Notes under the pieces: model-generated
What the model saw: the letters and a program-made list of their open reading frames with translations, nothing else
Databases searched by the model: none
What the model was told of the DNA's origin: nothing
Source of the DNA: Spirochaetia bacterium
GTDB lineage: Bacteria; Spirochaetota; Spirochaetia; CADAEX01
Length of the DNA: 64,000 nt
Assembly (NCBI GenBank): GCA_963662795.1
Contig: OY759746.1
Location: 1,760,001-1,824,000 of the forward strand
Direction: 5' to 3'
Program-made: the position numbers and the translations under genes
Part shown: positions 1 through 14,171 of the stretch, in pieces
How positions within the stretch are numbered: the stretch's first letter is position 1
How the letters are laid out: each line of letters starts with the position of its first letter

Positions 1-432
1 GCGAGGGTGAGGGATACCGGGAAGTGGAAGATTTTTGCCCAGACTTCAGCTGACTCCATGGTAAGTACAGTGCCTGTTAAAACCTGGAAGGAGCTGTATC
101 TGCAGGAACTCAGGTGGAGCACAGGCGCCATCCATGCCCCTGATATTGCTTCCAGGGTCGGCTACGGGTTTATCATGTATCAGCTTCTGATCGGTATAAT
201 CCTGTTTATACCGGCTTTTTTTAATCCCTTTTTCTTCCCTGTCTTTTTTTGCGGAATCGTTTCCATGCTTTCTGTTTCACTGACTTACGGGCTTCATCTG
301 AAGCCGGGTCTTTCATTCTGGAAGACACTGCCTCTCTCTCTGGTGATTGCACAGTTTCTTTTCCCCATAGTCACTGCAAGGGCTTCCTTCCGGCCGTCAG
401 TTATATGGAAGGGCAATAAACTTGATACATGA
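1..432 (+). CDS. Glycosyltransferase family 2, C-terminal part (5' end outside the window); HpnI/ceramide-glucosyltransferase-like
   Basis: Frame is open from base 1. It has a QxxRW motif (QELRW), several TM segments and a C-terminal VIWKG. Confidence 0.7.
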   Translation, partial: ARVRDTGKWKIFAQTSADSMVSTVPVKTWKELYLQELRWSTGAIHAPDIASRVGYGFIMYQLLIGIILFIPAFFNPFFFPVFFCGIVSMLSVSLTYGLHLKPGLSFWKTLPLSLVIAQFLFPIVTARASFRPSVIWKGNKLDT

Positions 433-514
433 TTTATGCTTGATCAGAGGCGATGGGTAAGCAGCGCCGGAGCGACTTACTGATTCTATGAAAAGAATAC
501 TTAAACGGCATAAG

Positions 515-1081
515 TTACATAATCCAGGTGTCATGCCTGGTGGATGATACGGAACAGGCCCCGGCGTCGAGGGCTGTCATTATATCTTCCCTGTCTGTAA
601 TAAGGCCCCCGGCTATAACCGGCATGTGTGTGGAAGCTGCAAAAAGCTTTATGACTTTAGGCATAAGACCGGGGAGGATTTCAATTGCATCCGGTTTGCA
701 TTCCTTTATAGCCTTGAAGCCCGAGTCGATTGAAAGTGAGTCGAGGATGAAAAAACGCTGTATAACAAATATTTTTCTTTCCTTTGCAGATTTTACAAGG
801 CTTGTCTTGGTGGTTATTATTCCGTCTGTCTGTGTCTGATCCGCAAGATAATCAAGCGCGTAAACTGATCTTGCAAGCCCTTCCACAAGATCAAAGTGGA
901 TAAATGCAATTTTGCCTGAATCCTTGACTTTCCCTACCAGTCTTGAAATGTTGGTGATTGTCGAGGTAAGTATGAAAATAATTTCGTTGTCGGTCCTAAG
1001 TGCATCGTCAAGGTCTTTTTCATCCTTGACCGCAGGAATTATAGGATTGCTGCGGAAAGCTGCTACAATATCTGGAATCAT
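515..1081 (-). CDS. glpP: Glycerol-3-phosphate-responsive antiterminator GlpP
   Basis: 188 aa with IIPAVK, HFDLVEGL, DGIITTK, IQRFFILDS, PDAIEILPG, PVIAGGLI and AGACSVSS, all typical of GlpP. Confidence 0.95.
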   Translation of the reverse strand: MIPDIVAAFRSNPIIPAVKDEKDLDDALRTDNEIIFILTSTITNISRLVGKVKDSGKIAFIHFDLVEGLARSVYALDYLADQTQTDGIITTKTSLVKSAKERKIFVIQRFFILDSLSIDSGFKAIKECKPDAIEILPGLMPKVIKLFAASTHMPVIAGGLITDREDIMTALDAGACSVSSTRHDTWIM

Positions 1082-1146
1082 ATTGGTTAATTATTTATCA
1101 GCCTGAATACTTTGTCAAACCCTAACCCCTTTAAATAATTAAATAT

Positions 1147-1176
1147 TTGACATTCTTATATTTTAGGGATTATACT
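1147..1176 (+). promoter_or_regulatory. Sigma70-type promoter of the ABC transporter operon
   Basis: TTGACA (1147-1152), 18 bp spacer, TATACT (1171-1176). Confidence 0.7.
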
Positions 1177-1189
1177 AATGTCAGTACAA

Positions 1190-1257
1190 GATGGCGGAGT
1201 AACAGAGAGCCGGGAAAATGAGGCACAAAGTGTTGTCTTGTTTTGCCGTTTTTTTTT
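1190..1257 (+). promoter_or_regulatory. Leader attenuator, copy 1 (putative GlpP target)
   Basis: GGCGGAG..GAGAGCCG (1205-1212), then stem CGGGAAAATGAGGCA/TGTCTTGTTTTGCCG and T9 (1249-1257), lying between the promoter and the first gene. Confidence 0.75.
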
Positions 1258-1401
1258 GCCCTGATGTCTCTGGATAGACATGACTCTGTCTTGATACTTT
1301 TTTGGCTTTTATATCTTAAATAATAAATTATCACCCTTTCGATACGGGAAAAATTAATTATTAAGATGTATAATTGAATATGATTTCCAGAGGAGGAAAC
1401 A

Positions 1402-2490
1402 ATGAAAAAGTTATTATTGGTTTTTTTATGCCTTGCAGTACTTGCATCAGGCGTCTTTGCCGGCGGTAAGAAAGAAGCGGCGAAAGAAGAGAACAAGGTC
1501 CTAAGGCTCATATCCTGGACAGGATATGCTCCCGCAGACCAGATTGCGAAATTTAAAGAAGAAACAGGCATTACTGTTGAGGTTACTTTCAGCAGCAACG
1601 AAGAGATGATATCAAAGCTCAGGGCGACAAGAGGCGGCGGATTTGATCTTGCCCAGCCTTCACAGGACAGGATTTCAGCGATGGTTGAAGAATTCGGTAT
1701 ATATCAGCCTATCGATTATTCAAAGGTTAACACAGCTCAGCTTGACCCTAGCATGCTTGCAGCGACAAAAAAATATACAGAAGTTAACGGCAAATCATAT
1801 GCAGTTCCCCATGTGTTCGGAACATCAGGTCTTATTGTAAACAAGGCAAAAGCTCCTGACGTAAAAGACTACAAAGATCTTCTTGATCCCAAATATACAG
1901 GAAGAACTGCCTACAGAATGAAGAGACCGACAATCCTTGCTATGGGATTCTCACTTGGTTATGATCCCTTTGCTCTCTACAGCGACAAGGCTGCTTACCA
2001 GAAATATCTTGATGAAATAGGCGATGTTCTTATCAAGGCAAAACCGGTTGTAAGAAACTACTGGGAAAACGGAGATGCGCTTCTTGAATCAATGAGATCA
2101 GGCGAAGTATGGGCAGCAATGGGCTGGGAACAGCAGGCCTGGAAGCTTTATAAGGAAAACAAGGACATCGATTATGTTGCGCCGGCGAGCGGATCAATGG
2201 CATGGGTTGACACATTCGCAATTCCCGCAAAATCAGAAAATGTTGAAGGCGCCTACAAGTGGATCAACTTCGTACTTAAACCTGAAAATGCCGCAGCTTT
2301 CACAAATGTGGAAAATTACGGAACATCATCAAAAGACGCTGTGAAATTCCTGAATCCAGAAGCAGCTGCCAACTTCTCAAGGTGCTTTACACCGGAAGTT
2401 ATGGCAAAAATGAACTGGTATCCGACAGTTCCAGCCGGTCTTGAAGAGATGGAAGGAAAGACAATGGACAAGATCAAGGCTTCCAAGTAA
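1402..2490 (+). CDS. ABC transporter substrate-binding protein, PotD/PotF family
   Basis: SD GAGGAGG, signal peptide VFAGGKKE, motifs SWTGY, FKEETGITV, SNEEMISKL, AWVDTFAIP and AYKWINF. Confidence 0.9.
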   Translation: MKKLLLVFLCLAVLASGVFAGGKKEAAKEENKVLRLISWTGYAPADQIAKFKEETGITVEVTFSSNEEMISKLRATRGGGFDLAQPSQDRISAMVEEFGIYQPIDYSKVNTAQLDPSMLAATKKYTEVNGKSYAVPHVFGTSGLIVNKAKAPDVKDYKDLLDPKYTGRTAYRMKRPTILAMGFSLGYDPFALYSDKAAYQKYLDEIGDVLIKAKPVVRNYWENGDALLESMRSGEVWAAMGWEQQAWKLYKENKDIDYVAPASGSMAWVDTFAIPAKSENVEGAYKWINFVLKPENAAAFTNVENYGTSSKDAVKFLNPEAAANFSRCFTPEVMAKMNWYPTVPAGLEEMEGKTMDKIKASK

Positions 2491-2516
2491 GAATTGGTCC
2501 TGAAATAATTGTAAAA

Positions 2517-2607
2517 TGCCGGCGGTTTCTGTATCGAAGCGGAGTTTTGGAACCGCGTTTCAGGGTTTCACCCTGAAGGGGCGAGTTTAAGATACACCCC
2601 GCCGGTA
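2517..2607 (+). other. Multi-branched intergenic RNA/DNA structure after the binding-protein gene
   Basis: TGCCGGCGG/CCGCCGGTA and TGTATC/GATACA close two internal hairpins (GCGG/CCGC and TTCAGGG/CCCTGAA). Confidence 0.55.
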
Positions 2608-2616
2608 TCACTTTTT

Positions 2617-2682
2617 CGGCAAAGAGACATGAGAGCCGGAAGATAAGGTATTTGTTAAATGACCTTGTTTGCCGGTTTTTTT
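2617..2682 (+). promoter_or_regulatory. Internal attenuator, copy 2 (putative GlpP target)
   Basis: GGCAAAGAG..GAGAGCCG (2631-2638), stem GCCGGAAGATAAGGTATTT/AAATGACCTTGTTTGCCGGT and a T tract. Clearly homologous to copy 1. Confidence 0.75.
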
Positions 2683-2868
2683 ATGCCGGCAGTTGCAGAT
2701 CCTTCGGTGATAAGTATATAAACCTGACGCGGTATTGGTATTTTGATCTTTAAAACCTTCATGACAGGGTTTATAATATTTATTGAGGAAAGCAATTGTG
2801 ATACATCTGCGGCTCGTCCGGGCAAAAGATTCATGTTGATAAAAAATTTATTATAGAGGTATTGAAAG

Positions 2869-3975
2869 ATGCAGATTGATTTATCGGTTAAGGAACTTAC
2901 CAGGAAATTCGGCGAATTTACAGCTGTCGACAGGGTATCTTTCAATGTTGAAAGCGGCAAATTCTTTTCAATACTCGGCCCTTCCGGCTGCGGTAAAACA
3001 ACCCTGCTTAGAATGATAGCAGGTTTCTATGAACCCACCAGTGGTGCCATAGAAATCCGGGGCGATGACATGGCAGGGGTTGAGCCCAACAGGCGACCGG
3101 TTAATCTGGTTTTTCAGCACCTGGCGCTTTTTCCCATGATGGATGTCAAGGAAAATATTGCATTCGGACTCAAGAGACGGGGAGAGAAAGGGCCGGCTGT
3201 TTACAAAAAAGTTAACGACCTGCTGGAAAGAGTAGGTCTTCCGGAACAGGCTAACAAGAAAATCAGCCAGCTTTCAGGGGGGCAGAAACAGAGGGTCGCA
3301 ATAGCAAGATGCCTTATACTTGAACCTGCCGTCCTCCTTCTTGACGAGCCGCTCGGCGCGCTTGATCTCAAACTAAGGGAGCATATGAAGGTTGAGCTCA
3401 AGAAGCTGCAGGTACAGGTCGGAACAACGTTTGTGTATATCACGCATGACCAGTCTGAGGCGATGGTTATGAGCGATTATGTAGCTGTCATGAATTCAGG
3501 CCACTTTGAACAGCTTGATACACCCCAGACCCTGTACAACAATCCCCAGTCCTCCTTTGTCGCCCAGTTTGTCGGTGACAATAATCAGTTTATAGGAATA
3601 CTTCACCGTGATGAGAACGGCTCCCATTATGTAGTAACAGATGATAAGAGAAAATATCTTGTAAGGGAATGCGACTTATCCGACGGGGAAAGGGTTGAAA
3701 TGTATATAAGGCCTGAGGCGGTCATAATTAAACCTGATGCGGGAAAAGCCAATTTCAATACTGTTAAAGTTCTTGTAAAAGCGATACTTTTCGACGGAGC
3801 CAACAGCCGTCTGCTTGTTGTGCTGGATGGGAGTGATAAAGAGCTTATAGTTTCCCTGCCCCAGAACAGGCAGTTTGACTATATCAAATCGGGCGATTCC
3901 ATTGAAATCGGCTGGGACATCAAATCTGCTGTCTGTTTCAGGGAATCAGGAGTTAAAGCTTATGCTGAACTCTAA
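2869..3975 (+). CDS. ABC transporter ATP-binding protein, PotA family
   Basis: Walker A GPSGCGKTT, LSGGQKQRVA, LLLDEPLGALD, and a C-terminal TOBE-like region. Confidence 0.93.
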   Translation: MQIDLSVKELTRKFGEFTAVDRVSFNVESGKFFSILGPSGCGKTTLLRMIAGFYEPTSGAIEIRGDDMAGVEPNRRPVNLVFQHLALFPMMDVKENIAFGLKRRGEKGPAVYKKVNDLLERVGLPEQANKKISQLSGGQKQRVAIARCLILEPAVLLLDEPLGALDLKLREHMKVELKKLQVQVGTTFVYITHDQSEAMVMSDYVAVMNSGHFEQLDTPQTLYNNPQSSFVAQFVGDNNQFIGILHRDENGSHYVVTDDKRKYLVRECDLSDGERVEMYIRPEAVIIKPDAGKANFNTVKVLVKAILFDGANSRLLVVLDGSDKELIVSLPQNRQFDYIKSGDSIEIGWDIKSAVCFRESGVKAYAEL

Positions 3976-4819
3976 ACATAATAAAATCAGATGGGGTTTC
4001 TGGATTTTCTTTATACCGGTTTTTCTCTGGCTCTTTCTCCTCATTATCCTTCCCCATATCGAGCTTTTAAGGATGTCTTTTTTTGAAAGAAAATCCGGGT
4101 TTACCATTGCAAACTATGCAGCCTTTTTTACAGAGCCTATCTACTGGCTTACGTTTGTAAGAACAGCCTTGTATTCGATAATAGTAACATTTATTGTTCT
4201 TGTTGTGGCGCTGCCTGTTTCTTTCTATGTTACAAAGGTTTCAGGATTCAAGGTGCAGGGTTTTCTTATGGTGCTCCTCCTCCTGCCGTTCTGGGTAAGC
4301 GAACTGATCAGGGTTTACGGCTGGATGATACTGCTCCGGGAAAGCGGGGTAATCAACAAGATTCTTGTGGGAATGGGTTTTTGGGACCAGCCTGTCGAGA
4401 TGCTCTACAATGATGCTGTTATGATAATGGGGCTTGTATATACCTCAATACTTTTTATGGTTATCCCAATAATAGGCGTTATGGAAAGCCTTGATGATTC
4501 CTATATAGAAGCAGCCTATGATCTCGGCGCCAAAAAGATGGTAATCTGGCAGAAGATCATTATCCCTCACTGCATGCCGGGTATAATGTCGGGATCAATT
4601 GTTGTTTTCATGCTTGTTCTTGGAAGTTATCTGACTCCAAACCTTATGGGAGGCAAGAATTCCCTCTGGTTTACCCAGCAGATATATAATCAGTTTATAA
4701 CATATTTCAACTGGAATCAGGGCGCCGCTTTCGGCTTTCTCCTTCTCCTGATGTCTTCGGGAATTATATGGGTAGCTCTCCGGCTTACGGGGCAGCAGCT
4801 TAGCGAGGTGGTAAAATGA
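3962..4819 (+). CDS. ABC transporter permease, PotB family (start moved to ATG 3962)
   Basis: SD AGGAG at about 3948, LPFWVSELIRVYGW, EAA loop EAAYDLGA, multiple TM segments. Confidence 0.9.
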   Translation: MLNSKHNKIRWGFWIFFIPVFLWLFLLIILPHIELLRMSFFERKSGFTIANYAAFFTEPIYWLTFVRTALYSIIVTFIVLVVALPVSFYVTKVSGFKVQGFLMVLLLLPFWVSELIRVYGWMILLRESGVINKILVGMGFWDQPVEMLYNDAVMIMGLVYTSILFMVIPIIGVMESLDDSYIEAAYDLGAKKMVIWQKIIIPHCMPGIMSGSIVVFMLVLGSYLTPNLMGGKNSLWFTQQIYNQFITYFNWNQGAAFGFLLLLMSSGIIWVALRLTGQQLSEVVK

Positions 4820-5670
4820 TAAGATCACTTCCCAGATCAACCGCATATAAAACAACCTATTCCCTGTTTATTTTCCTCTATTTTTTGTTTCTTTTCGCCC
4901 CTCTGCTTGTTACCTGTATACTTGCGTTTAACGATTCAATGTTCCCTTCCCTGCCCTGGAACGGGTTTACGCTTGACTGGTTTACAGGGGCCGGACCTGA
5001 AAAAATAGGTATTTTTAATGATAAAATAAACCTCCGCAGTATCGGAGTATCTTTCAGGGTCGCTGTTGCTGTTTCGGCACTTTCGACCGTAGTCGGCACC
5101 TGTGCCGCATTCCTGTTTGAGCAGGAGAATTTCAGATTCAAAAACCTCTTCTATTTTCTTATGCTTGCTCCCCTTGTAATACCGGGCGTTATACTGGGTA
5201 TATCTATCCTGTTGTTTTCAAATCTTGCAGGTATATTTTTTGAAGAAAAACTGGGTATGGATGTTAAATTGTTCAGCCCCGGTACATGGCTTGTTATTAT
5301 GGGGCAGTTTTCTTTTATCACGACTTTTGTCGCGCTTGTCGTCGGGGCCAGACTCAAGAAATTTGACAAAACCCTTGAAGAGGCGGCATACAACCTGGGC
5401 GCAAACAGGTTTGAGGTTATCTGGTTCATTACATTGAAATTTTTACGCCCTTCAATAATCGGAGGAGCGGCAGTAGCGTTTCTGATGTCGTTTGAAAATT
5501 TTAATACAACCCTTTTTCTTGTAGGTTCTGAAGCAACCCTGCCCATCAATCTGTATCTGCAGGTAAGGGACGGCTCAACGCCTGTAATTAACGCAATATC
5601 CTTTCTACTGATACTTTCTACTTCCATATTTGCAGTTGCCAATCTCTATTTTTCAAAGAAGGAGGAATAG
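4816..5670 (+). CDS. ABC transporter permease, PotC family
   Basis: ATGA overlap with the upstream gene, GFTLDWF, EEAAYNLGA, TLPI..Y and TPVINAIS. Confidence 0.9.
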   Translation: MIRSLPRSTAYKTTYSLFIFLYFLFLFAPLLVTCILAFNDSMFPSLPWNGFTLDWFTGAGPEKIGIFNDKINLRSIGVSFRVAVAVSALSTVVGTCAAFLFEQENFRFKNLFYFLMLAPLVIPGVILGISILLFSNLAGIFFEEKLGMDVKLFSPGTWLVIMGQFSFITTFVALVVGARLKKFDKTLEEAAYNLGANRFEVIWFITLKFLRPSIIGGAAVAFLMSFENFNTTLFLVGSEATLPINLYLQVRDGSTPVINAISFLLILSTSIFAVANLYFSKKEE

Positions 5671-5686
5671 AAAGGGACGGGAGATA

Positions 5687-5715
5687 TTGTTTATACTTAA
5701 GCTTGAAAATATAAT
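5687..5715 (+). promoter_or_regulatory. Internal sigma70-type promoter upstream of the DHH/kinase genes
   Basis: TTGTTT (5687-5692), 17 bp spacer, TATAAT (5710-5715). Confidence 0.6.
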
Positions 5716-5720
5716 AGTAA

Positions 5721-5785
5721 AGGCAGGATTTAAGAGAGCCGTGGTCCGTAAGGTGTTAAAATATACCGGGGATCCCGGCTTTTTT
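5721..5785 (+). promoter_or_regulatory. Leader attenuator, copy 3 (putative GlpP target)
   Basis: GGCAGGA..GAGAGCCG (5734-5741), stem GCCGTGGTCC..GGTGT/ATACC..GGATCCCGGC and T6. Confidence 0.7.
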
Positions 5786-5900
5786 ACGGAATAAGAGGAA
5801 TTGAGGACAGAAAGATAAGGCCGGATAACTGAAAACCGGTAAATCATCCGGAAAAGCTGTGCTGACCGGATCAATGGAGAAATGATAAAGGGGTGGAGCG

Positions 5901-7154
5901 ATGGATTTAAGTGACGCGATGGAAAAATATCTGAAAGACATCAGGGGCGGAATTGAAAAAATGAAAAGCTACGGATCAAAAGAGCTTATCCTTCTGCATC
6001 ATAACGATTCTGACGGACTTACATCCGGGTCGATTCTGCTTAGGGCTTTCAAGCGCGCAGGTTTCAGTGTGAGCCGGTTTTCACTTGAAAAACCGTATCC
6101 TGCCGTTCTTGAAAAACTGTTTGATGAAAACAGCGGGAAGATCGTTGTCTTTGCGGATTTTGCCGGAAAGATTGCCCCTATAATTGCAGAAATCAACAGG
6201 GGGAGAAATCTTGTTCTTCTGCTCGATCACCACAGGGCAGAGCCGTCACCTGATGAATCTGTTCTTAATCTTGACCCGGACCTTTACGGCCTGAGGGGCG
6301 ACAGGGACATATCCGCATCGGTCGTCTGCTATTATTTTGCGGTGGAACTTGATAAGGCAAACCGCGACCTTGTTCATATCGCAGCTTTCGGCGGAATCGC
6401 AGATTTCTACTATCTTGACAGGAAGGTCCACTCATACAACAGGCTCTGCTTTGAGGAAGCTGTGAAATCTGGCCTTATGAGAAGCGATAACGCCGGAGGA
6501 GAGGAGAGGTTTTATATCACTCTGGGAGAAATGGAATTGGATGTTGTTGATTTTTATCCTCTTCTTGATATCGCAGGGGGTGTAGGTTTTTATAACGGCG
6601 GGCCTGAACTTGGTATTTCCATTCTGCTTGAAGGACTTACTCTCGGTAAACTTGAAAAAATTGAAAAGCTTAAAAAAATCAAGGACTCTCTTTTCGCGCA
6701 GGAACTTGAAACCCTTAAAAAGGGTGGGCTGCACGATACCGGCAATATCCAGTGGTTCGATACAAAAGAAAAGTTCTCTCCTATGGGAGTAAAAATGATC
6801 GGAGTTTTTTGCGAAGAGATAGCGGAACTTGATTTTCTTGACCACGGGAAATATCTCGCAGGTTTTCAGATAATACCTGATACAGTTCCCGGATTCGGTA
6901 CTGTAAAGATGGGACAGACAAAGATTTCTATGAGAAGTTCATCAGAACTCTCTAAAAAAATAATTGATAAGAAAATGCCCGGAATGAGTGATTTTCTTCC
7001 TGAAGCGACAAATAATCTGGGCGGATTCGCGGATGCCTGCCACAGCATAGCAGCTGCGACTACGATCAACGCAGGACGGGAAAGCGAGCTTATGGATGAA
7101 ACACAGAAAGTTCTGGAATCAAAAATGAAGAAAAATGGAGGATTAAATGGGTAA
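5901..7154 (+). CDS. DHH family phosphoesterase
   Basis: HHNDSDGLTSG (motif I), VFAD (motif II), LLDHH (motif III) and GGIAD (motif IV). Confidence 0.85.
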   Translation: MDLSDAMEKYLKDIRGGIEKMKSYGSKELILLHHNDSDGLTSGSILLRAFKRAGFSVSRFSLEKPYPAVLEKLFDENSGKIVVFADFAGKIAPIIAEINRGRNLVLLLDHHRAEPSPDESVLNLDPDLYGLRGDRDISASVVCYYFAVELDKANRDLVHIAAFGGIADFYYLDRKVHSYNRLCFEEAVKSGLMRSDNAGGEERFYITLGEMELDVVDFYPLLDIAGGVGFYNGGPELGISILLEGLTLGKLEKIEKLKKIKDSLFAQELETLKKGGLHDTGNIQWFDTKEKFSPMGVKMIGVFCEEIAELDFLDHGKYLAGFQIIPDTVPGFGTVKMGQTKISMRSSSELSKKIIDKKMPGMSDFLPEATNNLGGFADACHSIAAATTINAGRESELMDETQKVLESKMKKNGGLNG

Positions 7155-8124
7155 GGGGACTGCTTTTGGAAAATCTATTCTTATTGGCGATCAGTTTGTT
7201 TTAAACGGGGTGCCTGCAATACTATCCGCGCTGCCGTATCAGACAGAAACAATTGTTGAAAGGACGCCTGGTCTCGGCGGAAGGGGTTTTACCGTTGTTG
7301 ACAACAGGGTTGAGGTTCCGGGATACAAAAAGAAAAAAGAGGAAGCCTGCTACAGATCGTATGAGCAGATGATAAAGGTGATGGGACTTGATCTTAAAAA
7401 GAACCCGATAAAAATTACTGTCGGAGGCGACCTGCTTGCCGGGAGCGGTGTAGGGGCGAGCGCCGCGATAAGCGTTTCATTTGCCCGTGCGTGCAACAGG
7501 GAATTCAATCTGGGCCTTGATGCGATTGAGGAGAACTATATAGGCTGGGAGGGTGAGCATGCCTACCACGGTATTCCGAGCGGTGTAGACAATACAGCAT
7601 CATCCTTCGGCGGACTCATGATGTACATGATCCGGGACGGGAAAAAAATGTATGAAAGAATTGTCCCGGCCAAACCTCTTTATATTGTTCTTGCCAACAG
7701 CGGTGTCACATATAACACTGCCCTTCTTGATGAGCATGTTGAGGGGATGATTAAAAACAATCCCGAACTTTTCTACACTACAATGAGTAAAATTACATCC
7801 CAGGTGTATGAAATGAAAAAGGCGATTGAATCAGGCGATCTTGCATCAGCCGGTAAAATCATGACAGAAAACCACAGGCTGCTGATTGATATGGATTTAA
7901 GCCAGGAAAGGCTGATTGAGCTTTGCGGAAGGTCCATAGAGATGGGCGCTTACGGCGCAAAGCTTACCGGCGGCGGGAAGGGAGGCTACATGGTCGCGCT
8001 TGTGAAAGATGCGGATATGCAGAAAAAGATAGCATCGAAATTCGAGTCTGAAGGCGTTCCTGTCATAACTGCCCAGCTTGGAATCAATGCCGCGGATAAC
8101 GTTAAGTTCAGGATCCTTAAATAA
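7147..8124 (+). CDS. GHMP kinase, mevalonate-kinase-like
   Basis: GKSILIGDQFV, ATP loop AGSGVGASAA, HGIPSGVDNTASSFGG and GAKLTGGGKGG. Confidence 0.85.
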   Translation: MGKGTAFGKSILIGDQFVLNGVPAILSALPYQTETIVERTPGLGGRGFTVVDNRVEVPGYKKKKEEACYRSYEQMIKVMGLDLKKNPIKITVGGDLLAGSGVGASAAISVSFARACNREFNLGLDAIEENYIGWEGEHAYHGIPSGVDNTASSFGGLMMYMIRDGKKMYERIVPAKPLYIVLANSGVTYNTALLDEHVEGMIKNNPELFYTTMSKITSQVYEMKKAIESGDLASAGKIMTENHRLLIDMDLSQERLIELCGRSIEMGAYGAKLTGGGKGGYMVALVKDADMQKKIASKFESEGVPVITAQLGINAADNVKFRILK

Positions 8125-8148
8125 AACTTACTCGCTGTTAAAGCGGGG

Positions 8149-8196
8149 AGGGCAGCCGGAACCGGAAAATACCGGAAGACGGGCTGCCCTTTTTTT
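8149..8196 (+). terminator. Rho-independent terminator ending the ABC/DHH/kinase unit
   Basis: AGGGCAGCC/GGCTGCCCT stem followed by a T run. Confidence 0.7.
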
Positions 8197-9001
8197 ATTT
8201 TCTTTTGGCAAGAATTATCTGAGAAGCCTCATAAAAACCTTCCGCGTCATTCTTTTCTGTGACATACACGGGATAGTGCTTCATGATGGGAAGAAATTTT
8301 TTGATGTTTGCGACTGCAATTGTATGTTTGAGAGCTTTAAACATAGGCTCATCATTCTGGGAGTCTCCCGCGAAAATTATTTTATCCTGAAGCGCTTCAA
8401 GCTCCTTCCCTGTAAAATCCTTAAGAAGCATCCTGAAGCATGTAAGCTTGTCATAATCTCCGTACCAGCAATTTATGTGGATACTTGATATTTTATAAAC
8501 TGCTTTCTCTTCATCAAGAATACTGCAGATTTTATCCATTTCATTTTTATTCAGCGGCGGGACATCTTCGCAGAAATCAATTGCAAGGTCGGCAATCCTG
8601 AAATCCTGATCCGACGCAATACCTGCGTTCGGCACTTCCTTCAGAACCCTCTCTTTTATTTTATTGAGTCTGTCCCTGCCCTGTCTTCTATCCTCATCGC
8701 TCTGGAGATATTTTCTTATTACTTTTCTCTGCTGCGGATCATAGGAAAAATAAAAGGCGCCGTTTTCACCTACAACCCCCGCAACCGGCCACATCCTTGC
8801 GATGTGATCGCACCATCCGGCAGGACGCCCTGTTACAGGCACTATTTTTATACCTGCATCATGAAGTTTCCAGATTGCCTCAAAGGTTGATGAGGGAAGT
8901 TTCCCCCCGGTAGTGATTGTGTCATCAATATCCGTAAAAAGGTAAAGGAGGTTTTTGCAAAGGTCCTCCGGAATTTCGTTTACATGCGTTATGGGTTTCA
9001 T
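8195..9001 (-). CDS. HAD-IIB family hydrolase (start moved to ATG 9001)
   Basis: FTDIDDT, VTGRPAGW, GENGA and GDSQNDEPMF; SD GGAGAGG before MKPITH. Confidence 0.88.
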   Translation of the reverse strand: MKPITHVNEIPEDLCKNLLYLFTDIDDTITTGGKLPSSTFEAIWKLHDAGIKIVPVTGRPAGWCDHIARMWPVAGVVGENGAFYFSYDPQQRKVIRKYLQSDEDRRQGRDRLNKIKERVLKEVPNAGIASDQDFRIADLAIDFCEDVPPLNKNEMDKICSILDEEKAVYKISSIHINCWYGDYDKLTCFRMLLKDFTGKELEALQDKIIFAGDSQNDEPMFKALKHTIAVANIKKFLPIMKHYPVYVTEKNDAEGFYEASQIILAKRK

Positions 9002-9090
9002 TATCCTCTCCGTTGAGAGAATATTATTTATTGAAGGATTCATCAATAGAGGGTTTGACACGGGATATTATAATTTTGTATTGTGAATTT

Positions 9091-9789
9091 ATGATAATAG
9101 CACACAGGGGGGCAAGCGCGTATGCCCCGGACAATACAATAGCCGCGATAAACAAGGCATTTGAACTAGGAGCAGACGGCATAGAAATAGATGTTCAGAT
9201 GAGCCGTGATGGTGAACTTTTTATTTTTCATGACTGGAACCTTGAAAAAGTAACAGGTGATAAAGCCTTGATTACATCAAAAAGCTCGGCGGAAATAAAA
9301 AATATTGATGCAGGAAGCTGGTTCTCTCCGGAATTCGCCGGCGAGAAAATACCAAAGCTGGATGAGGTGCTGGATATAGTGCCTAAGGGTAAGCTGGTTA
9401 ATATTGAGATAAAGAAAACTGTTTTAGACACAAGACCGGTTGAAGAAAAGGTTGTAAGGCTGGTAAGTGATAAGGGGATGACCGGGAATGTCATTATTTC
9501 ATCTTTTAATCATAGAACCATTTCAATCGTTGAGAAGATCGACGCCGAAATAAAGACAGCCCTTATCATGGCATCACAGCTGGTAAATCCGATGAAGTAT
9601 CTAAGTAATTTCAGATGCTACAGTTTCCATCCGGTTTTATATTATGCAGATGAGCAGCTTGTAAAAGAGCTCCATGCAAATAACATTAAAATATATCCCT
9701 GGGTGGTAAACGATGCTTTTTATGCAAAAGCGCTTACCGGCGCCGGCTGCGACGGGATAATTACCAATTATCCGGATCTTAAATTTTAA
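9091..9789 (+). CDS. Glycerophosphodiester phosphodiesterase, cytoplasmic UgpQ-like (start moved to ATG 9091)
   Basis: IIAHRGAS, GIEIDV, IFHD, NIEIK, IISSF, WVVND and DGIITNYP; no signal peptide. Confidence 0.92.
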   Translation: MIIAHRGASAYAPDNTIAAINKAFELGADGIEIDVQMSRDGELFIFHDWNLEKVTGDKALITSKSSAEIKNIDAGSWFSPEFAGEKIPKLDEVLDIVPKGKLVNIEIKKTVLDTRPVEEKVVRLVSDKGMTGNVIISSFNHRTISIVEKIDAEIKTALIMASQLVNPMKYLSNFRCYSFHPVLYYADEQLVKELHANNIKIYPWVVNDAFYAKALTGAGCDGIITNYPDLKF

Positions 9790-9822
9790 GGCAAGTCGTA
9801 CCTTCCTCAGGCGACGGGATTA

Positions 9823-10743
9823 TTACCAATTATCCCGACCTTCGTTTCCAAGGAAAATTTTAACCTCTTCAAGTGACGGAATAGAAGTAATTCCCCCTCT
9901 CTTCTGTACAGAGAGGGCGGAAGCGGCGGCTGAAAAAACTATTGCTTTTTCAAGGCTATAGCCCTGTACAAGACACCACGCAAAGGCCCCGTGATAGATA
10001 TCGCCGGCCCCTGTTGTGTCTACCGCCTTAACCCTGAATGCATCAAGGCGGGTAACTTCTCCCTCTTTTTCAAATACCATCCCGTCCTCACCCATGGTAA
10101 TTACTATTGTATTTTTATTTAAACCTTTAAGCGCATTAAATGCCCTGTTATAGCCGGAACTTTCCTTTATGTTTTTTATACCGGAGACAGAACATGCGAA
10201 CCTCTCGGAACATACCAGATAATCAACCTTTGCGGCGAGGCACTCTGTTTCTTTTCTGAGAGAGCCTGCATCAAGAATAGTTTTTGCATCAGGAAATATT
10301 TCCATGGACTTAAGCGCTGTTTCAAGTTCATATCCGTCAAAGAGAAGGACAGACGGGTTATATTTTTTAAGCCCCTCTGCGGTCTGACCGCCTGTCTGTT
10401 CAAGGGTGTTCCTGTTTACAAGTGTTCTGCTTCCATTTTCAAGATTTACAATTATTATTGAAAGAGGCGTTTTAATCCCTTTCCTTTTTATCATACTGCT
10501 GCAGTCAACCCCTGATTCTGTAAGTTCATTTTCAATCAGCTGCCCGTAAATATCATCGCCTGTAACTCCAATGAATGAGGAGTCAAGTCCCCACTTTGAC
10601 AGAAGGCATGATGCGTTTGCAGCAGGGCCTCCTGTGCATTCGTTGAAATCCTGCGTCATGTACTTGAAGTTTTCCTCAGGGTATTTCTCAAAGTAAGCTG
10701 TGATATCATAAGAAGTGTTTCCGATGCAGAGTACCTGATCCAT
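9823..10743 (-). CDS. PfkB family carbohydrate kinase
   Basis: GGPAANA, GVTGDDIYG and the PfkB signature VDTTGAGDIYHGAF. Confidence 0.9.
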   Translation of the reverse strand: MDQVLCIGNTSYDITAYFEKYPEENFKYMTQDFNECTGGPAANASCLLSKWGLDSSFIGVTGDDIYGQLIENELTESGVDCSSMIKRKGIKTPLSIIIVNLENGSRTLVNRNTLEQTGGQTAEGLKKYNPSVLLFDGYELETALKSMEIFPDAKTILDAGSLRKETECLAAKVDYLVCSERFACSVSGIKNIKESSGYNRAFNALKGLNKNTIVITMGEDGMVFEKEGEVTRLDAFRVKAVDTTGAGDIYHGAFAWCLVQGYSLEKAIVFSAAASALSVQKRGGITSIPSLEEVKIFLGNEGRDNW

Positions 10744-10745
10744 AT

Positions 10746-11753
10746 TTAACCTGCCTGAAAAAAAATCGGGACAAGAAACGGGACCGCGAGTGACAGAATC
10801 GCGCCGCTTGAAATGGAAAGAGGAACTATACTGTCTCCGCAGCTCTTTTCAATAAGAGGCAGCGTTACATCCATGCTTGTCGCCCCGGCAACCCCTATCG
10901 CGATATTCGGGTACCTTGTGCGGGCAATAAAGGGAATTGTAACAAGCGCTATACTTTCCCTCATGAGGTTTATCAGAAACCCTGCCGATCCAAGCACAGG
11001 GTCTCCCATATCTGTAATGATGACCCCGGACAGCGAGTACCAGCCGAAGCCTGATACAAGCGCAAGTGCCTTGCCAGGCGTTATCATAAGCAGCGGGGCG
11101 GCGGCAAGTCCCCCGAGCAGGGAACCGATTATAGTCCCGAGCGGCAGCAGCGCGGTTTCAGGGTGGGCAAGGGTATCCTTAAGGCTTACATTGTTCTTTA
11201 CAAGCTGGGCGCCGATTAAAAACAGGAGAAGATACAAAAGCCATGTAGTAAGGTTTGAACCTGTAAATGCCGGATAAATCTTTATAAGCCAGCCTGATGC
11301 GAAGCCCGCAATTACATACGATACAAGCTTAAGGGGCTCTTTCAGGTGGTGGAAAAATCCTTCATCACCGGCACTGAAATTGTTTATGCTGACGCTTCCG
11401 GCGGCAGCAGACGCTCTGGCGCTGTTTATGCCGGACTTTACTTCATAAGGTTTAAATGACTGTGTATTTCCCCGGAAATAATCCCTGACTGAAAATATTA
11501 TGAAAAGTACTATAACAGTTCCCGCAACCGAAGCTACTGCAAAGGAAATGGAAACAATGCCAATGGTTTTAAGCGCTTTGCCTATTTCCTCGTTTCTTCC
11601 TATTCTGAACCCCATGAAGAAAAGGAGAAGGAAAAGCGAAATGTTTATCAGGGTATTGAACACCCTGCCCTCTGGGAGAATTCTGATTTTTGCTGCAGCC
11701 ATGCCTGCGAACAAAAACACGAGTATTATTCCAATTGAGATAAATGCAGACAT
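10746..11753 (-). CDS. Lysine exporter LysO (YbjE/DUF340) family membrane protein
   Basis: GFGWYSLSG, NLMRE and GATSMDVTLPLI motifs with many TM segments. Confidence 0.85.
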   Translation of the reverse strand: MSAFISIGIILVFLFAGMAAAKIRILPEGRVFNTLINISLFLLLFFMGFRIGRNEEIGKALKTIGIVSISFAVASVAGTVIVLFIIFSVRDYFRGNTQSFKPYEVKSGINSARASAAAGSVSINNFSAGDEGFFHHLKEPLKLVSYVIAGFASGWLIKIYPAFTGSNLTTWLLYLLLFLIGAQLVKNNVSLKDTLAHPETALLPLGTIIGSLLGGLAAAPLLMITPGKALALVSGFGWYSLSGVIITDMGDPVLGSAGFLINLMRESIALVTIPFIARTRYPNIAIGVAGATSMDVTLPLIEKSCGDSIVPLSISSGAILSLAVPFLVPIFFQAG

Positions 11754-11906
11754 GGCTAAAAACTAACATAATCCCCCTATTAGTTCAATTAGCCGCGTTA
11801 TTTATGCTTCTTATAATCTAAAAACTTGACTATTATCAATCGTATATGTAAAAATAATAAATATGTTTATGCCTATATGGCAAACATAAAATAAGGAGTA
11901 TTACAG

Positions 11907-12665
11907 ATGAAAAAGATTTTACTTGTACTGCTTGCGGCAGTTCTGGTTTTCGGAATTGCTTCATGTTCAAAGAAAGAGCAGAAAGCAGGAGAAAAAAAGG
12001 TTATAACAATTGCATCAGACGCGACATGGCCACCGATGGAGTATGTAGACGAAAATAAAAATATTGTCGGATTTGATGTTGATCTGATGAATGCCGCGGC
12101 TGAAGCAGGCGGATATGAAGTAGTAATTAAAAATACCGCATGGGACGGAATTTTTGCCGGCCTTGCCAACGGCGAATATGACGCTGTCTGCTCATCAGTT
12201 ACAATTACTGAAGAGAGAAAAGGGACAATGGATTTTTCAGTACCCTATGTTAACGCAGGGCAGGTACTTGTCGTTGAAGCAGGGAATGACACGGATAAAG
12301 TTCTCGCTGACATGAAAGGCAAGGAAGCAGGTGCACAGATCGGTACAACCGGAGCTATTGAGATCCAGAATACCGAAGGCGTTGTTCTCAAAACTTACGA
12401 CGAAATAGGGCTTGCAATTGCTGACCTTGCCAACGGAAGAATAGCAGGTGTTGTTGCTGACGCCCCCATTGCAGCTGACTTCGTACTTCAGAATGATGAA
12501 TACAAGAGCAAACTCAAAATAGTAGGAGTTCCTTTTACAGATGAATACTACGGCGTGGCTGTAAAAAAAGGAAATCAGGAAATTCTTGATCTGGTAAACG
12601 CGGGACTTAAAAAAGTCATAGACTCCGGAAAAGCAAAAGAGCTTGAAGACAAGTGGCTCAGATAA
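11907..12665 (+). CDS. Polar/basic amino acid ABC transporter substrate-binding lipoprotein
   Basis: Lipobox IASC, DATWPPME, GFDVDL, WDGIFAGL and GAQIGTTG. Confidence 0.92.
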   Translation: MKKILLVLLAAVLVFGIASCSKKEQKAGEKKVITIASDATWPPMEYVDENKNIVGFDVDLMNAAAEAGGYEVVIKNTAWDGIFAGLANGEYDAVCSSVTITEERKGTMDFSVPYVNAGQVLVVEAGNDTDKVLADMKGKEAGAQIGTTGAIEIQNTEGVVLKTYDEIGLAIADLANGRIAGVVADAPIAADFVLQNDEYKSKLKIVGVPFTDEYYGVAVKKGNQEILDLVNAGLKKVIDSGKAKELEDKWLR

Positions 12666-13438
12666 AAACGCCCCGTTTTGAAGTTACAGATGGTACGCTG
12701 ATCCCGGATAAAGGCGAGAAATCCATATTTTCAGCCTGGAAACTCGCCTTTTTCGGGGCTATATCACTGCTTATCATTCTCCCTGTTGTCAAACCGGACC
12801 CATATTTTCAGATTATTAAATTCCTGCCGGACGGGATTATTGCGACTTTTCAGGTAACAATACTTTCGATTGTCCTTTCGTTTTTTATAGGACTGATAAC
12901 AGGCCTGGGACGGATTTCAAGAATAACGTTTTTCAACCGGATTGCAACAGTTTATGTCGAGGTGATAAGGGGGATTCCGCTTCTTGTCCAGCTTTTTTAT
13001 ATCTATTACGCGCTTGGCAAAATTGTTCAGGTTCCCCGCCTTGCCTCAGCTGTAATTGCCATGGCTGTGTGTTACGGGGCCTACATGGGAGAGATATTCA
13101 GGGCAGGTATACTTGCCATCCCGAGGGGACAGATGGAGGCAGCCCTTGCACTTGGACTTTCCAGGGGACAGGCTTTATGGAAGGTAATTCTTCCTCAGAC
13201 AATCAAGGTTATCCTGCCGCCGATCGGCAACGAGTTTATAGCGCTGCTTAAGGATTCCTCCCTTGTTTCGATCCTTGCGGTATCTGATTTACTCAGGCGT
13301 GGCAGGGAATATGCATCAACGTCATTCATGTATTTTGAAAGCTACACAATAGTAGCTCTTGTGTACCTGATTATTACCCTGTTCCTGTCAAGGCTTGTGG
13401 CAATAATGGAAGAAAGGCTGGTGAGACGTGAAAAGTAA
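12653..13438 (+). CDS. Polar amino acid ABC transporter permease
   Basis: [24 protein letters not shown] and [12 protein letters not shown]; GTG start is uncertain. Confidence 0.9.
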
Positions 13439-14171
13439 CAACAAACCAAGAGTAAGAATTGAAAATGCGTCAAAAAATTTTGATAAAGTAACAGCGCTGA
13501 AAAACGTAAGCCTCGAAGTTAAAACCGGAGAAGTTGTCCTTATTATCGGCCCTTCCGGAAGCGGTAAAAGCACCTTGTTAAGGAGTGTAAACAGGCTTGA
13601 AAACCTTACTTCGGGAGATATCTGGGTTGATGACGATCTTTTGACTCATAACAAATCAGATATACGGAAGATTCGGGAAGAGGTTGGAATGGTTTTTCAG
13701 AGTTTCAATCTGTTTTCCCACCTTACTGCGCTTGAAAATGTAACGCTCGCGCCGCTGACAGTTAAAAAGACACCAAAAGAAGCTGCTGCAGCAAACGGGA
13801 GAGAGCTCCTTAAAAGGGTAGGCCTTTCCGATAAGGAAAACAACTATCCTGACCAGCTTTCAGGAGGACAGCAGCAGCGGGTTGCGATTGCAAGGGCTCT
13901 TGCAATGAACCCCAAGGTGATGCTGTTTGACGAACCTACAAGCGCCCTTGATCCCGAAATGATAAAGGAAGTTCTTGATGTTATGCTTCAGCTTGCAAAA
14001 GACGGAATGACAATGCTTGTTGTTTCCCACGAGATGGGTTTTGCAAGAGCGGCAGCTGATAAAGTTGTTTTTATGGACGGCGGAGAGATTATTGAAACAG
14101 GCACCCCCGATGATATTTTTGACAGGCCGAAGGAAGAGAGAACAAAAAAATTCCTCAAGCATATATTGTAA
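13428..14171 (+). CDS. Polar amino acid ABC transporter ATP-binding protein, GlnQ family
   Basis: [33 protein letters not shown] and [11 protein letters not shown]. Confidence 0.93.

Follow-up and report, generated by a model that had tools for sequence, protein, structure and literature searches.

To our knowledge, GlpP is a textbook antiterminator that has been studied almost only in Bacillus. Sections of two reports on Bacillus subtilis (PMC9604022, PMC10573289) describe three GlpP-dependent promoters, for each of which the 5´ untranslated region contains a terminator and a site bound by GlpP. A paper on Thermotoga left the GlpP regulon there unanalysed. Here, we describe a window of 64,000 nucleotides (nt) from a Spirochaetia bacterium (assembly GCA_963662795.1, contig OY759746.1), which corresponds to positions 1760001–1824000 of a 3.93 Mb genome. 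In this window, a glpP gene, predicted to encode an antiterminator responsive to glycerol-3-phosphate (G3P), is divergent from the genes of a Pot-like ATP-binding cassette (ABC) importer, a DHH phosphoesterase and a GHMP kinase (Table 1). All of these genes had been named in a first-pass annotation made from the letters alone, and the open reading frame (ORF) map and the profile searches bear the names out. The locus is probably best explained as part of a GlpP antitermination regulon that contains genes for the uptake and breakdown of glycerophospho-type compounds. The regulatory half of this reading is well supported by comparative evidence and is very likely to be correct.

The central element of the locus is a short RNA leader that ends in an intrinsic terminator. 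The first-pass annotation had proposed that the same terminator-bearing motif precedes each of three units, and a copy is indeed located in the gap 5´ of the binding-protein gene, and likewise 5´ of potA and of the DHH gene. The layout comprises an invariant GGC, an A/G-rich stretch of 10–12 nt, an invariant GAGAGCC followed by R and G, a variable hairpin, C(C/T)GG and a run of 6–9 T. In leader 1, these elements appear as GGC, the spacer, GAGAGCCGG, the hairpin and U9. The folding z-scores are -2.65 for leader 1, -5.16 for leader 2 and -3.17 for leader 3. A covariance model, R1, was built from the six copies in the genome, and the matches of these copies are given by construction; the informative outcomes of the R1 scan are the empty score gap under the six and the matches in other genomes. 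Across the 3.93 Mb genome, the six copies score 70.8–79 bits and all other matches score at most 25.1 bits. Among the lower-scoring matches, three arise from the opposite strand of true sites and three more have E >= 3. All six sites lie on the sense strand, 12–177 nt 5´ of a start codon, and four of them have a perfect TTGACA approximately 45–60 nt upstream of the GGC. In an alignment of 28 sites, which was fitted to R1 and in which one row is an antisense artefact, 87.9% of the hairpin cells are paired, compared with 76.7% in shuffles. The covariation score of the hairpin in the same alignment is 0.347 versus 0.164 in shuffles, and none of 500 shuffles reaches 0.347. Both GGC and GAGAGCC are invariant, and thus the conservation exceeds what a terminator needs. 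Rfam covariance models gave no match at E <= 1 in positions 1–12000 of the window.

Leader 2 has no promoter-like site directly upstream. In the region 2500–2692, a GC-rich structured stretch separates the stop codon of the binding-protein gene from this leader. In the fold of leader 2, CGCCGGUAU (2601–2608) pairs with AUGCCGGC right after the U-run and encloses the terminator hairpin, an arrangement present only in this leader. A metatranscriptome contig from a relative at 90–95% likeness (X21; 1344–3260) runs from the binding-protein gene over leader 2 into potA, and a contig from a run of unspecified kind (X7) ends at 2626, 5 nt short of the leader 2 GAGAGCC; the two contigs reveal neither RNA ends nor RNA levels and were not used as evidence.

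The regulator itself is clearly assigned. GlpP covers the whole PF04309 profile (positions 1–173 of 173) at 214.5 bits (cut-off 27), matches PDB 3kts, a solved structure of GlpP, at E 7.5e-35, and shares 50–56% identity with proteins that carry the GlpP name in Ilyobacter, Clostridium and Alkaliphilus. Its gene is single-copy in the genome. Leader and regulator were compared in 20 genomes of the family, with R1 hits counted at E <= 0.001. glpP exceeds the cut-off in five of them (G000, G001, G005, G008 and G011), each of which contains four to six R1 matches; one of the five matches in G008 arises from the opposite strand of a true site. The motif is therefore found in 5/5 glpP-positive genomes versus 1/15 in which glpP was not found. 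Neither glpP nor the motif was found in the other 14 genomes, 13 of which still contain the DHH gene. The sites in G001, G005, G008 and G011 precede orthologues of the binding-protein gene, potA, the DHH gene, glpA, ugpB and the third binding-protein gene. In all five glpP-positive genomes, glpP directly adjoins a site, and this holds for both copies in G008. The second glpP of G008 (69% identity) lies in locus L130 (G008:C14:14000-32000, 5431–9052), where the motif is followed by a paralogue of the binding-protein gene (58% identity), a gene resembling those for glycerophosphodiester phosphodiesterase (GDPD) and glpP.

The remaining three leader copies precede ugpBAEC, a gene for a GlpA-like G3P dehydrogenase and a PhnS2-like ABC importer. 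The first-pass annotation had reported no glpF, glpK, glpD or glpT in the window, which holds as tested: none of the 10 FGGY-kinase matches lies inside, and neither MIP-family glpF nor glpT was found anywhere in the genome. The resulting picture of a GlpP regulon without classical glp genes is nevertheless wrong, as ugpBAEC and the glpA-like gene carry the leader outside the window. The classical kind of GlpP target is present and is located beyond the window edges. The ugp products exceed their cut-offs (UgpB, 546.7 versus 411 bits; UgpA, 354 versus 335; UgpC, 492 versus 432). The GlpA/GlpD-type G3P dehydrogenase gene is on the minus strand, and its start and leader lie approximately 0.9 kb left of the window. 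It encodes a 475-residue DAO+BFD protein with best matches to type-2 G3P oxidase and GlpA, and a gene for a Pyr_redox_2 flavoprotein follows. In the third importer operon (PhnS2/Afu-like), the leader is followed by the genes for a PhnS2-like binding protein, a fused permease and an ATPase.

The organisation resembles the B. subtilis GlpP regulon (glpFK, glpD and glpTQ), as far as the sections on that system describe it, in the full-length PF04309 regulator and in the promoter, leader and intrinsic terminator at each target. G3P uptake and oxidation genes are among the targets, and a glycerophosphodiesterase gene is nearby. This likeness is one of layout. In contrast to B. subtilis, uptake is assigned to ugpBAEC instead of glpT, and oxidation to the GlpA-like protein with its partner flavoprotein instead of GlpD. 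Further differences are that glpK lies outside the regulon, glpF and glpT are missing from the genes found in the spirochaete genome, and one terminator is operon-internal. The spirochaete regulon would also extend to three targets without a Bacillus counterpart, which are the DHH-kinase pair and the Pot-like and PhnS2-like ABC systems.

The genes, the motif with its positions, the uniqueness of the motif in the genome and its co-occurrence with glpP were computed, and on these we base a model in which binding by GlpP, the G3P signal and the substrate class are predictions. Sigma-70-type promoters would yield short leader RNAs, each of which would end at its intrinsic terminator; the potA leader would lie on read-through RNA from the binding-protein gene. 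The 5´ arm of the terminator is formed by the invariant GAGAGCC(R)G, and the invariant GGC located 10–12 nt upstream could pair with the GCC of this arm. GlpP-G3P might hold the resulting small stem-loop and thereby block the terminator. When G3P is present, GlpP-G3P would bind the GGC...GAGAGCC element, the terminator would be prevented and RNA polymerase would read through. The genes switched on in the window would be those for the lipoprotein-type binding protein, the ABC permeases and ATPase, and the cytoplasmic DHH phosphoesterase and GHMP kinase; elsewhere, ugpBAEC, the GlpA-like G3P dehydrogenase operon and the PhnS2/Afu-like ABC importer would follow. The window genes may then import and degrade an anionic, amine-bearing organophosphate of the glycerophosphodiester kind, with the participation of the neighbouring GDPD and HAD-IIB enzymes. 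Breakdown would yield G3P, which would feed the dehydrogenase and reinforce induction.

The binding protein carries a signal peptide and falls below the NCBIfam cut-offs of both PotD (140.1 bits; cut-off 582) and PotF (121.7 bits; cut-off 636). In an alignment to Escherichia coli PotD, W34, T35, Y37, S83, W229, W255, D257 and Y293 are kept, and E36, Y85, D168 and E171 are replaced by G, D, K and T, respectively. We take E36, D168, E171 and D257 of PotD to be the acidic residues that hold the polyamine nitrogens, and W34, Y37, W229, W255 and Y293 to form an aromatic box. The acidic contacts E36, D168 and E171 are replaced in 14/14 members of the binding-protein clade, three of which are from Desulfobacterota, and only D257 is kept of the four acidic positions. 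PSQDR and YR.KRP are invariant in all 14. The aromatic box is complete in the window protein; across the 14 clade members, the W255 position holds W or F, Y293 is retained in 13, and W34, Y37, W229 and D257 are retained in most or all. An aromatic box and one Asp beside an Arg/Lys cluster suggest that the ligand carries an amine at one end and is anionic at the other. We consider it unlikely that the importer is a classical polyamine system, because the scores lie far under the PotD and PotF cut-offs and the acidic contacts are now conserved basic residues. It shares with PotABCD and PotFGHI the ABC architecture, the fold family of the binding protein, and the equivalents of the aromatic box and Asp257. 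It differs from them in the missed equivalog cut-offs, in the Gly, Lys and Thr at the Glu36, Asp168 and Glu171 positions, in the conserved YR.KRP, and in its ties to G3P control and to genes for a phosphoesterase and a kinase.

The kinase scores 152.2 bits against the mevalonate kinase model TIGR00549, under the cut-off of 163.05. The equivalents of the Lys and Asp that are presumably catalytic are kept. The equivalents of His25, Val202 and Thr283, which we take to line the C3-methyl pocket of mevalonate kinase, are Gln (invariant), Asp (consensus) and Gly (invariant). 3-Hydroxy-3-methylglutaryl-CoA (HMG-CoA) reductase was not found in the genome and IspH is present. Four GHMP kinases are encoded, namely the window kinase, galactokinase, IspE and a pantoate-kinase-like protein. 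With neither HMG-CoA reductase nor another mevalonate-type GHMP kinase, the window kinase has no mevalonate pathway to serve, which agrees with the first-pass description of it as an orphan. Compared with Leishmania major mevalonate kinase (2hfs/2hfu), the protein has the same GHMP fold, ATP motifs and presumed catalytic Lys and Asp. In contrast, the TIGR00549 cut-off is missed, the presumed C3-methyl pocket positions are altered, the host genome uses the methylerythritol phosphate route and has no GHMP-type phosphomevalonate kinase or decarboxylase, and the gene is paired with a DHH gene.

Neither a type I nor a type III pantothenate kinase was found in the genome. A role of the window kinase as the missing pantothenate kinase was considered and rejected, since coaBC, at another site in the genome, is accompanied by genes for a pantoate-kinase-like protein and a phosphopantothenate synthetase. 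Locus L047 (G000:C1:2914209-2917415), which lies beside coaBC (2917805–2918374), contains the pantoate-kinase-like GHMP gene (146 bits; below the cut-off), panE and the phosphopantothenate synthetase gene (337.7 bits; cut-off 227). This arrangement with coaBC is the archaeal-type order of CoA synthesis, here in a spirochaete.

The DHH protein contains the motifs HHNDxDG, FADFAG, DHH, GDRDISAS and GGFxDACH, which are at least 95% conserved in 70 sequences and in which we presume the metal-binding Asp and His residues and the GGGH-like C-terminal motif of the DHH/DHHA1 families. The score against the Pfam DHH model (27.0) is just short of the cut-off of 28.1, and the archaeal RecJ equivalog is missed widely (130.1 bits; cut-off 360). 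The database names of its relatives are uninformative. Although fold and DHH and DHHA1-type motifs are shared with the archaeal RecJ/Cdc45 proteins GAN and RecJ2, the window protein is bacterial and its gene is translationally coupled to that of a small-molecule kinase. The gene lies beside GDPD, HAD and importer genes, outside any replication or repair context. A predicted complex of the DHH protein and the kinase scored 0.00, which says nothing either way.

The two enzymes form a conserved module. The kinase family gave 3445 matches among 8000 candidates scored, which are named 'mevalonate kinase' or 'hypothetical'. In a scan with one genome per species, 544 stretches encode a kinase relative, and the following locus counts come from the best 80. 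These loci belong to Spirochaetota, Chloroflexota, Desulfobacterota and a few others, at least four phyla in all. The DHH gene adjoins the kinase gene on the same strand in 75/80 loci, in the order DHH-kinase in 67 and the reverse in 8, with a median gap of 17 nt; in the five exceptions, the kinase gene lies within approximately 900 nt of a contig end. Searches of the 80 loci with tblastn recovered GDPD in 18, HAD-IIB in 16, a Pot-like binding protein in 13, a UgpB-like protein in 8 and glpP in 4, and ORF clustering added HAD-IIA (21), small GT2 proteins (13) and DeoR regulators (9). HAD-IIB orthologues (46–49% identity) also flank the pair in Desulfobacterota loci. In three Desulfobacterota loci, Pot-like genes (57–76% identity) follow the DHH-kinase pair, whereas they precede it in the window. 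The same partners in a different gene order argue for a functional link of the Pot-like genes and the pair. A DeoR regulator beside the pair in other spirochaetes was tried as a clue to the effector and set aside; its best match is haloarchaeal GlpR (170 bits versus a cut-off of 300), which is uninformative.

The pocket residues, the recurrent GDPD, UgpB-like and HAD neighbours, and the G3P-linked control point to a glycerophospho-type compound bearing an amine as the substrate class, a candidate that we put forward tentatively. The first-pass annotation had proposed that GlpP controls the uptake of a compound resembling a phospholipid head group. The control part gained support, as the leader co-occurs with glpP and precedes ugpBAEC and the glpA-like gene; a glycerophospho- or phospho-amine as the substrate would be compatible with the pocket and with the GDPD and UgpB-like neighbours. 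A bolder and rather doubtful extension is that the DHH protein and the kinase constitute a two-enzyme pathway found across phyla. The RecJ/Cdc45-fold enzyme would cut a phosphodiester that is not a nucleotide, and the kinase would phosphorylate the released alcohol, with carbon and phosphorus ending as G3P. In this spirochaete lineage, a new RNA leader would have wired this pathway and its dedicated Pot-type importer to GlpP, and G3P might act as a feed-forward signal for the scavenging of membrane debris. In such a pathway, the DHH enzyme could act on a glycerophospho-amine or on short chains of glycerol-phosphate that derive from teichoic acids or from the head groups of lipids.

Several observations weigh against a GlpP regulon for glycerophospho-type compounds. 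glpK is present in the genome (722 bits) but leader-free, and the R1 scan found no leader copy at the GDPD and HAD-IIB genes; the operon is thus tied to G3P production indirectly. In a pattern scan of metagenome contigs that gave 120 stretches, R1 confirmed sites in 3 of the 80 listed; two of these come from relatives that share the gene order, and the third is marginal. The remaining listed stretches were rejected as motif copies because they are unrelated terminators, and the motif is not extended to other taxa. G002, a sister species (95% complete, 270 contigs), has two weaker R1 sites, and glpP was not found in it. A distant glpP (31% identity) adjoins a Ugp-like ABC system in G041, a genome of another family in which R1 has no match. 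Genus g2, with genomes of 1.2–1.8 Mb, has a compact operon of ABC, DHH and kinase genes, followed by dapB and dapA, without glpP, the motif or an adjacent GDPD gene. This operon argues that the DHH-kinase module predates its GlpP control. The closest solved relative of the kinase is L. major mevalonate kinase 2hfs (251 bits; runner-up 113). The AlphaFold model of the DHH protein (predicted local distance difference test, pLDDT, 92.7) is most like archaeal RecJ/Cdc45 nucleases (TM-scores 0.71–0.78; identity 17–20%), and this fold is that of nucleic-acid nucleases.

In the locus of G002 that is syntenic to the window (L040, G002:C1:1-19000, 12558–14168), the gap contains no glpP, and none was found in the rest of that genome. 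Decay of the terminators in this glpP-negative genome was considered and rejected for leaders 1 and 3, which fold at -26.9 and -28.0 kcal/mol; the leader 2 terminator is deleted.

On the functional side, the importer could be an ordinary polyamine importer and the DHH-kinase pair could serve nanoRNA or 3´-phosphoadenosine 5´-phosphate (pAp) turnover, or the salvage of mevalonate or a similar hydroxy acid, with GlpP control a lineage-specific accident of gene order. We consider this unlikely. The top family matches are PotD, PotA, PotB and PotC, the best solved structures are polyamine binders, and the aromatic box and D257 are retained; however, all equivalog cut-offs are missed widely, and other residues stand at three of the acidic PotD contacts, two of which fall in a conserved basic motif. 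The RecJ/Cdc45-like fold, with pAp phosphatase and NrnA-type enzymes among the fold matches, and the g2 operon without a G3P-related neighbour are consistent with a housekeeping role. Against this role stand the Pot-like genes that adjoin the pair in another gene order in three Desulfobacterota loci and the GDPD, HAD and UgpB-like neighbours that recur across phyla. The kinase score comes near the mevalonate kinase cut-off (152 versus 163 bits), but no mevalonate pathway was found in the genome for a salvage enzyme to join.

The leader could also be real but read by a small riboswitch or another RNA-binding protein, or represent a lineage-specific terminator family, with glpP a mere neighbour. 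Leader copies without a detected glpP in G002 and glpP without the motif in G041 fit such a reading, and the leader belongs to no Rfam family that would set a precedent for tying it to GlpP. In contrast, a typical aptamer would need more than the conserved part of the leader outside the hairpin, which consists of GGC and an A/G-rich spacer of approximately 12 nt. All leader sites lie 5´ of G3P or organophosphate uptake genes. The motif tracks glpP in the family genomes and adjoins it directly wherever glpP was detected among them, including at both G008 copies, which makes a different reader of the leader quite improbable. Least likely of all is a biosynthetic module in which a phosphorylated head group or compatible solute would be made by the kinase, the DHH enzyme and HAD phosphatases, joined in some phyla by glycosyltransferases: HAD-IIA and GT2 genes flank the pair in 21/80 and 13/80 loci, a GT2/GT21 gene lies between glpP and glpA in the window genome and HAD-IIB weakly matches phosphatases of solute synthesis, but the pair stands in line with binding-protein-dependent importers in Spirochaetota and Desulfobacterota, catabolic regulators of the DeoR or GlpP type lie beside it, and no nucleotidyltransferase or synthase gene is consistently present.

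A GlpP regulon of glycerophospho-type uptake and breakdown genes would join a known regulatory kind, GlpP antitermination, to an uncharacterised conserved enzyme pair, and this combination is apparently new. Literature searches turned up no account of the DHH-kinase pair or of a regulon in which GlpP governs genes of this sort. The window offers a defined RNA target motif and a candidate regulon of six sites in another phylum. The automatic labels 'spermidine/putrescine transport', 'mevalonate kinase' and 'ssDNA exonuclease' are probably wrong for the at least 544 genomes that encode a kinase relative. G3P and glycerophosphodiester metabolism provides a physiological handle on the DHH-kinase pair and could lead to its substrate.

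Table 1. Features of the glpP locus, in window coordinates.
Feature	Position	Strand	Evidence and remarks
GT2/GT21-type glycosyltransferase gene, 3´ end	1–432	+	381 residues; starts left of the window
glpP, G3P-responsive antiterminator (188 residues)	515–1081	-	PF04309, E 8.8e-64, full profile
Sigma-70-like promoter, TTGACA-18-TATACT	1147–1176	+	11/12 consensus positions, consensus match alone; directly 5´ of leader 1
Leader 1	1190–1265	+	R1 74.3 bits; fold -29.9 kcal/mol
PotD-family substrate-binding protein gene	1402–2490	+	Profile searches; signal peptide, altered ligand pocket
Leader 2, operon-internal, before potA	2615–2692	+	R1 70.8 bits; fold -36.3 kcal/mol
ABC ATPase, PotA/PhnT2-like	2869–3975	+	Profile searches
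ABC permease, PotB-like	3875–4819	+	Longest ORF given; real start probably later
ABC permease, PotC/PotI-like	4816–5670	+	Profile searches
Leader 3, before the DHH-kinase pair	5719–5795	+	R1 73.1 bits; fold -29.7 kcal/mol
DHH phosphoesterase, archaeal RecJ/Cdc45-like fold	5901–7154	+	Catalytic motifs kept
GHMP kinase, mevalonate-kinase-like	7147–8124	+	8 nt overlap with the DHH gene
Strong hairpin and T-run between convergent kinase and HAD genes	8148–8196	.	-36.3 kcal/mol; z -4.89
HAD-IIB phosphatase	8195–9061	-	Profile searches
GDPD, cytoplasmic-type	9013–9789	+	Likely start is the ATG at 9091

The hairpin downstream of the kinase gene is the end of the DHH-kinase unit. The HAD-IIB and GDPD genes follow the operon directly, as the first-pass annotation had stated. 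On the other side of the locus, the GT2/GT21 gene sits between glpP and the glpA-like operon and has no leader motif upstream; its synteny is kept in genera g1 and g4. A tandem repeat (9749–9810 and 9811–9872; 74% identity) duplicates the final 62 nt of the GDPD gene, stop codon included. The second copy overlaps the 3´ end of a convergent PfkB kinase ORF, and the same arrangement occurs in contigs from two sequencing runs. This ORF is one of two genes, for a PfkB-family sugar kinase and a LysO-type exporter (9823–11753, minus strand), that are convergent to the GDPD gene, and the pair stays beside GDPD in genera g1 and g4.

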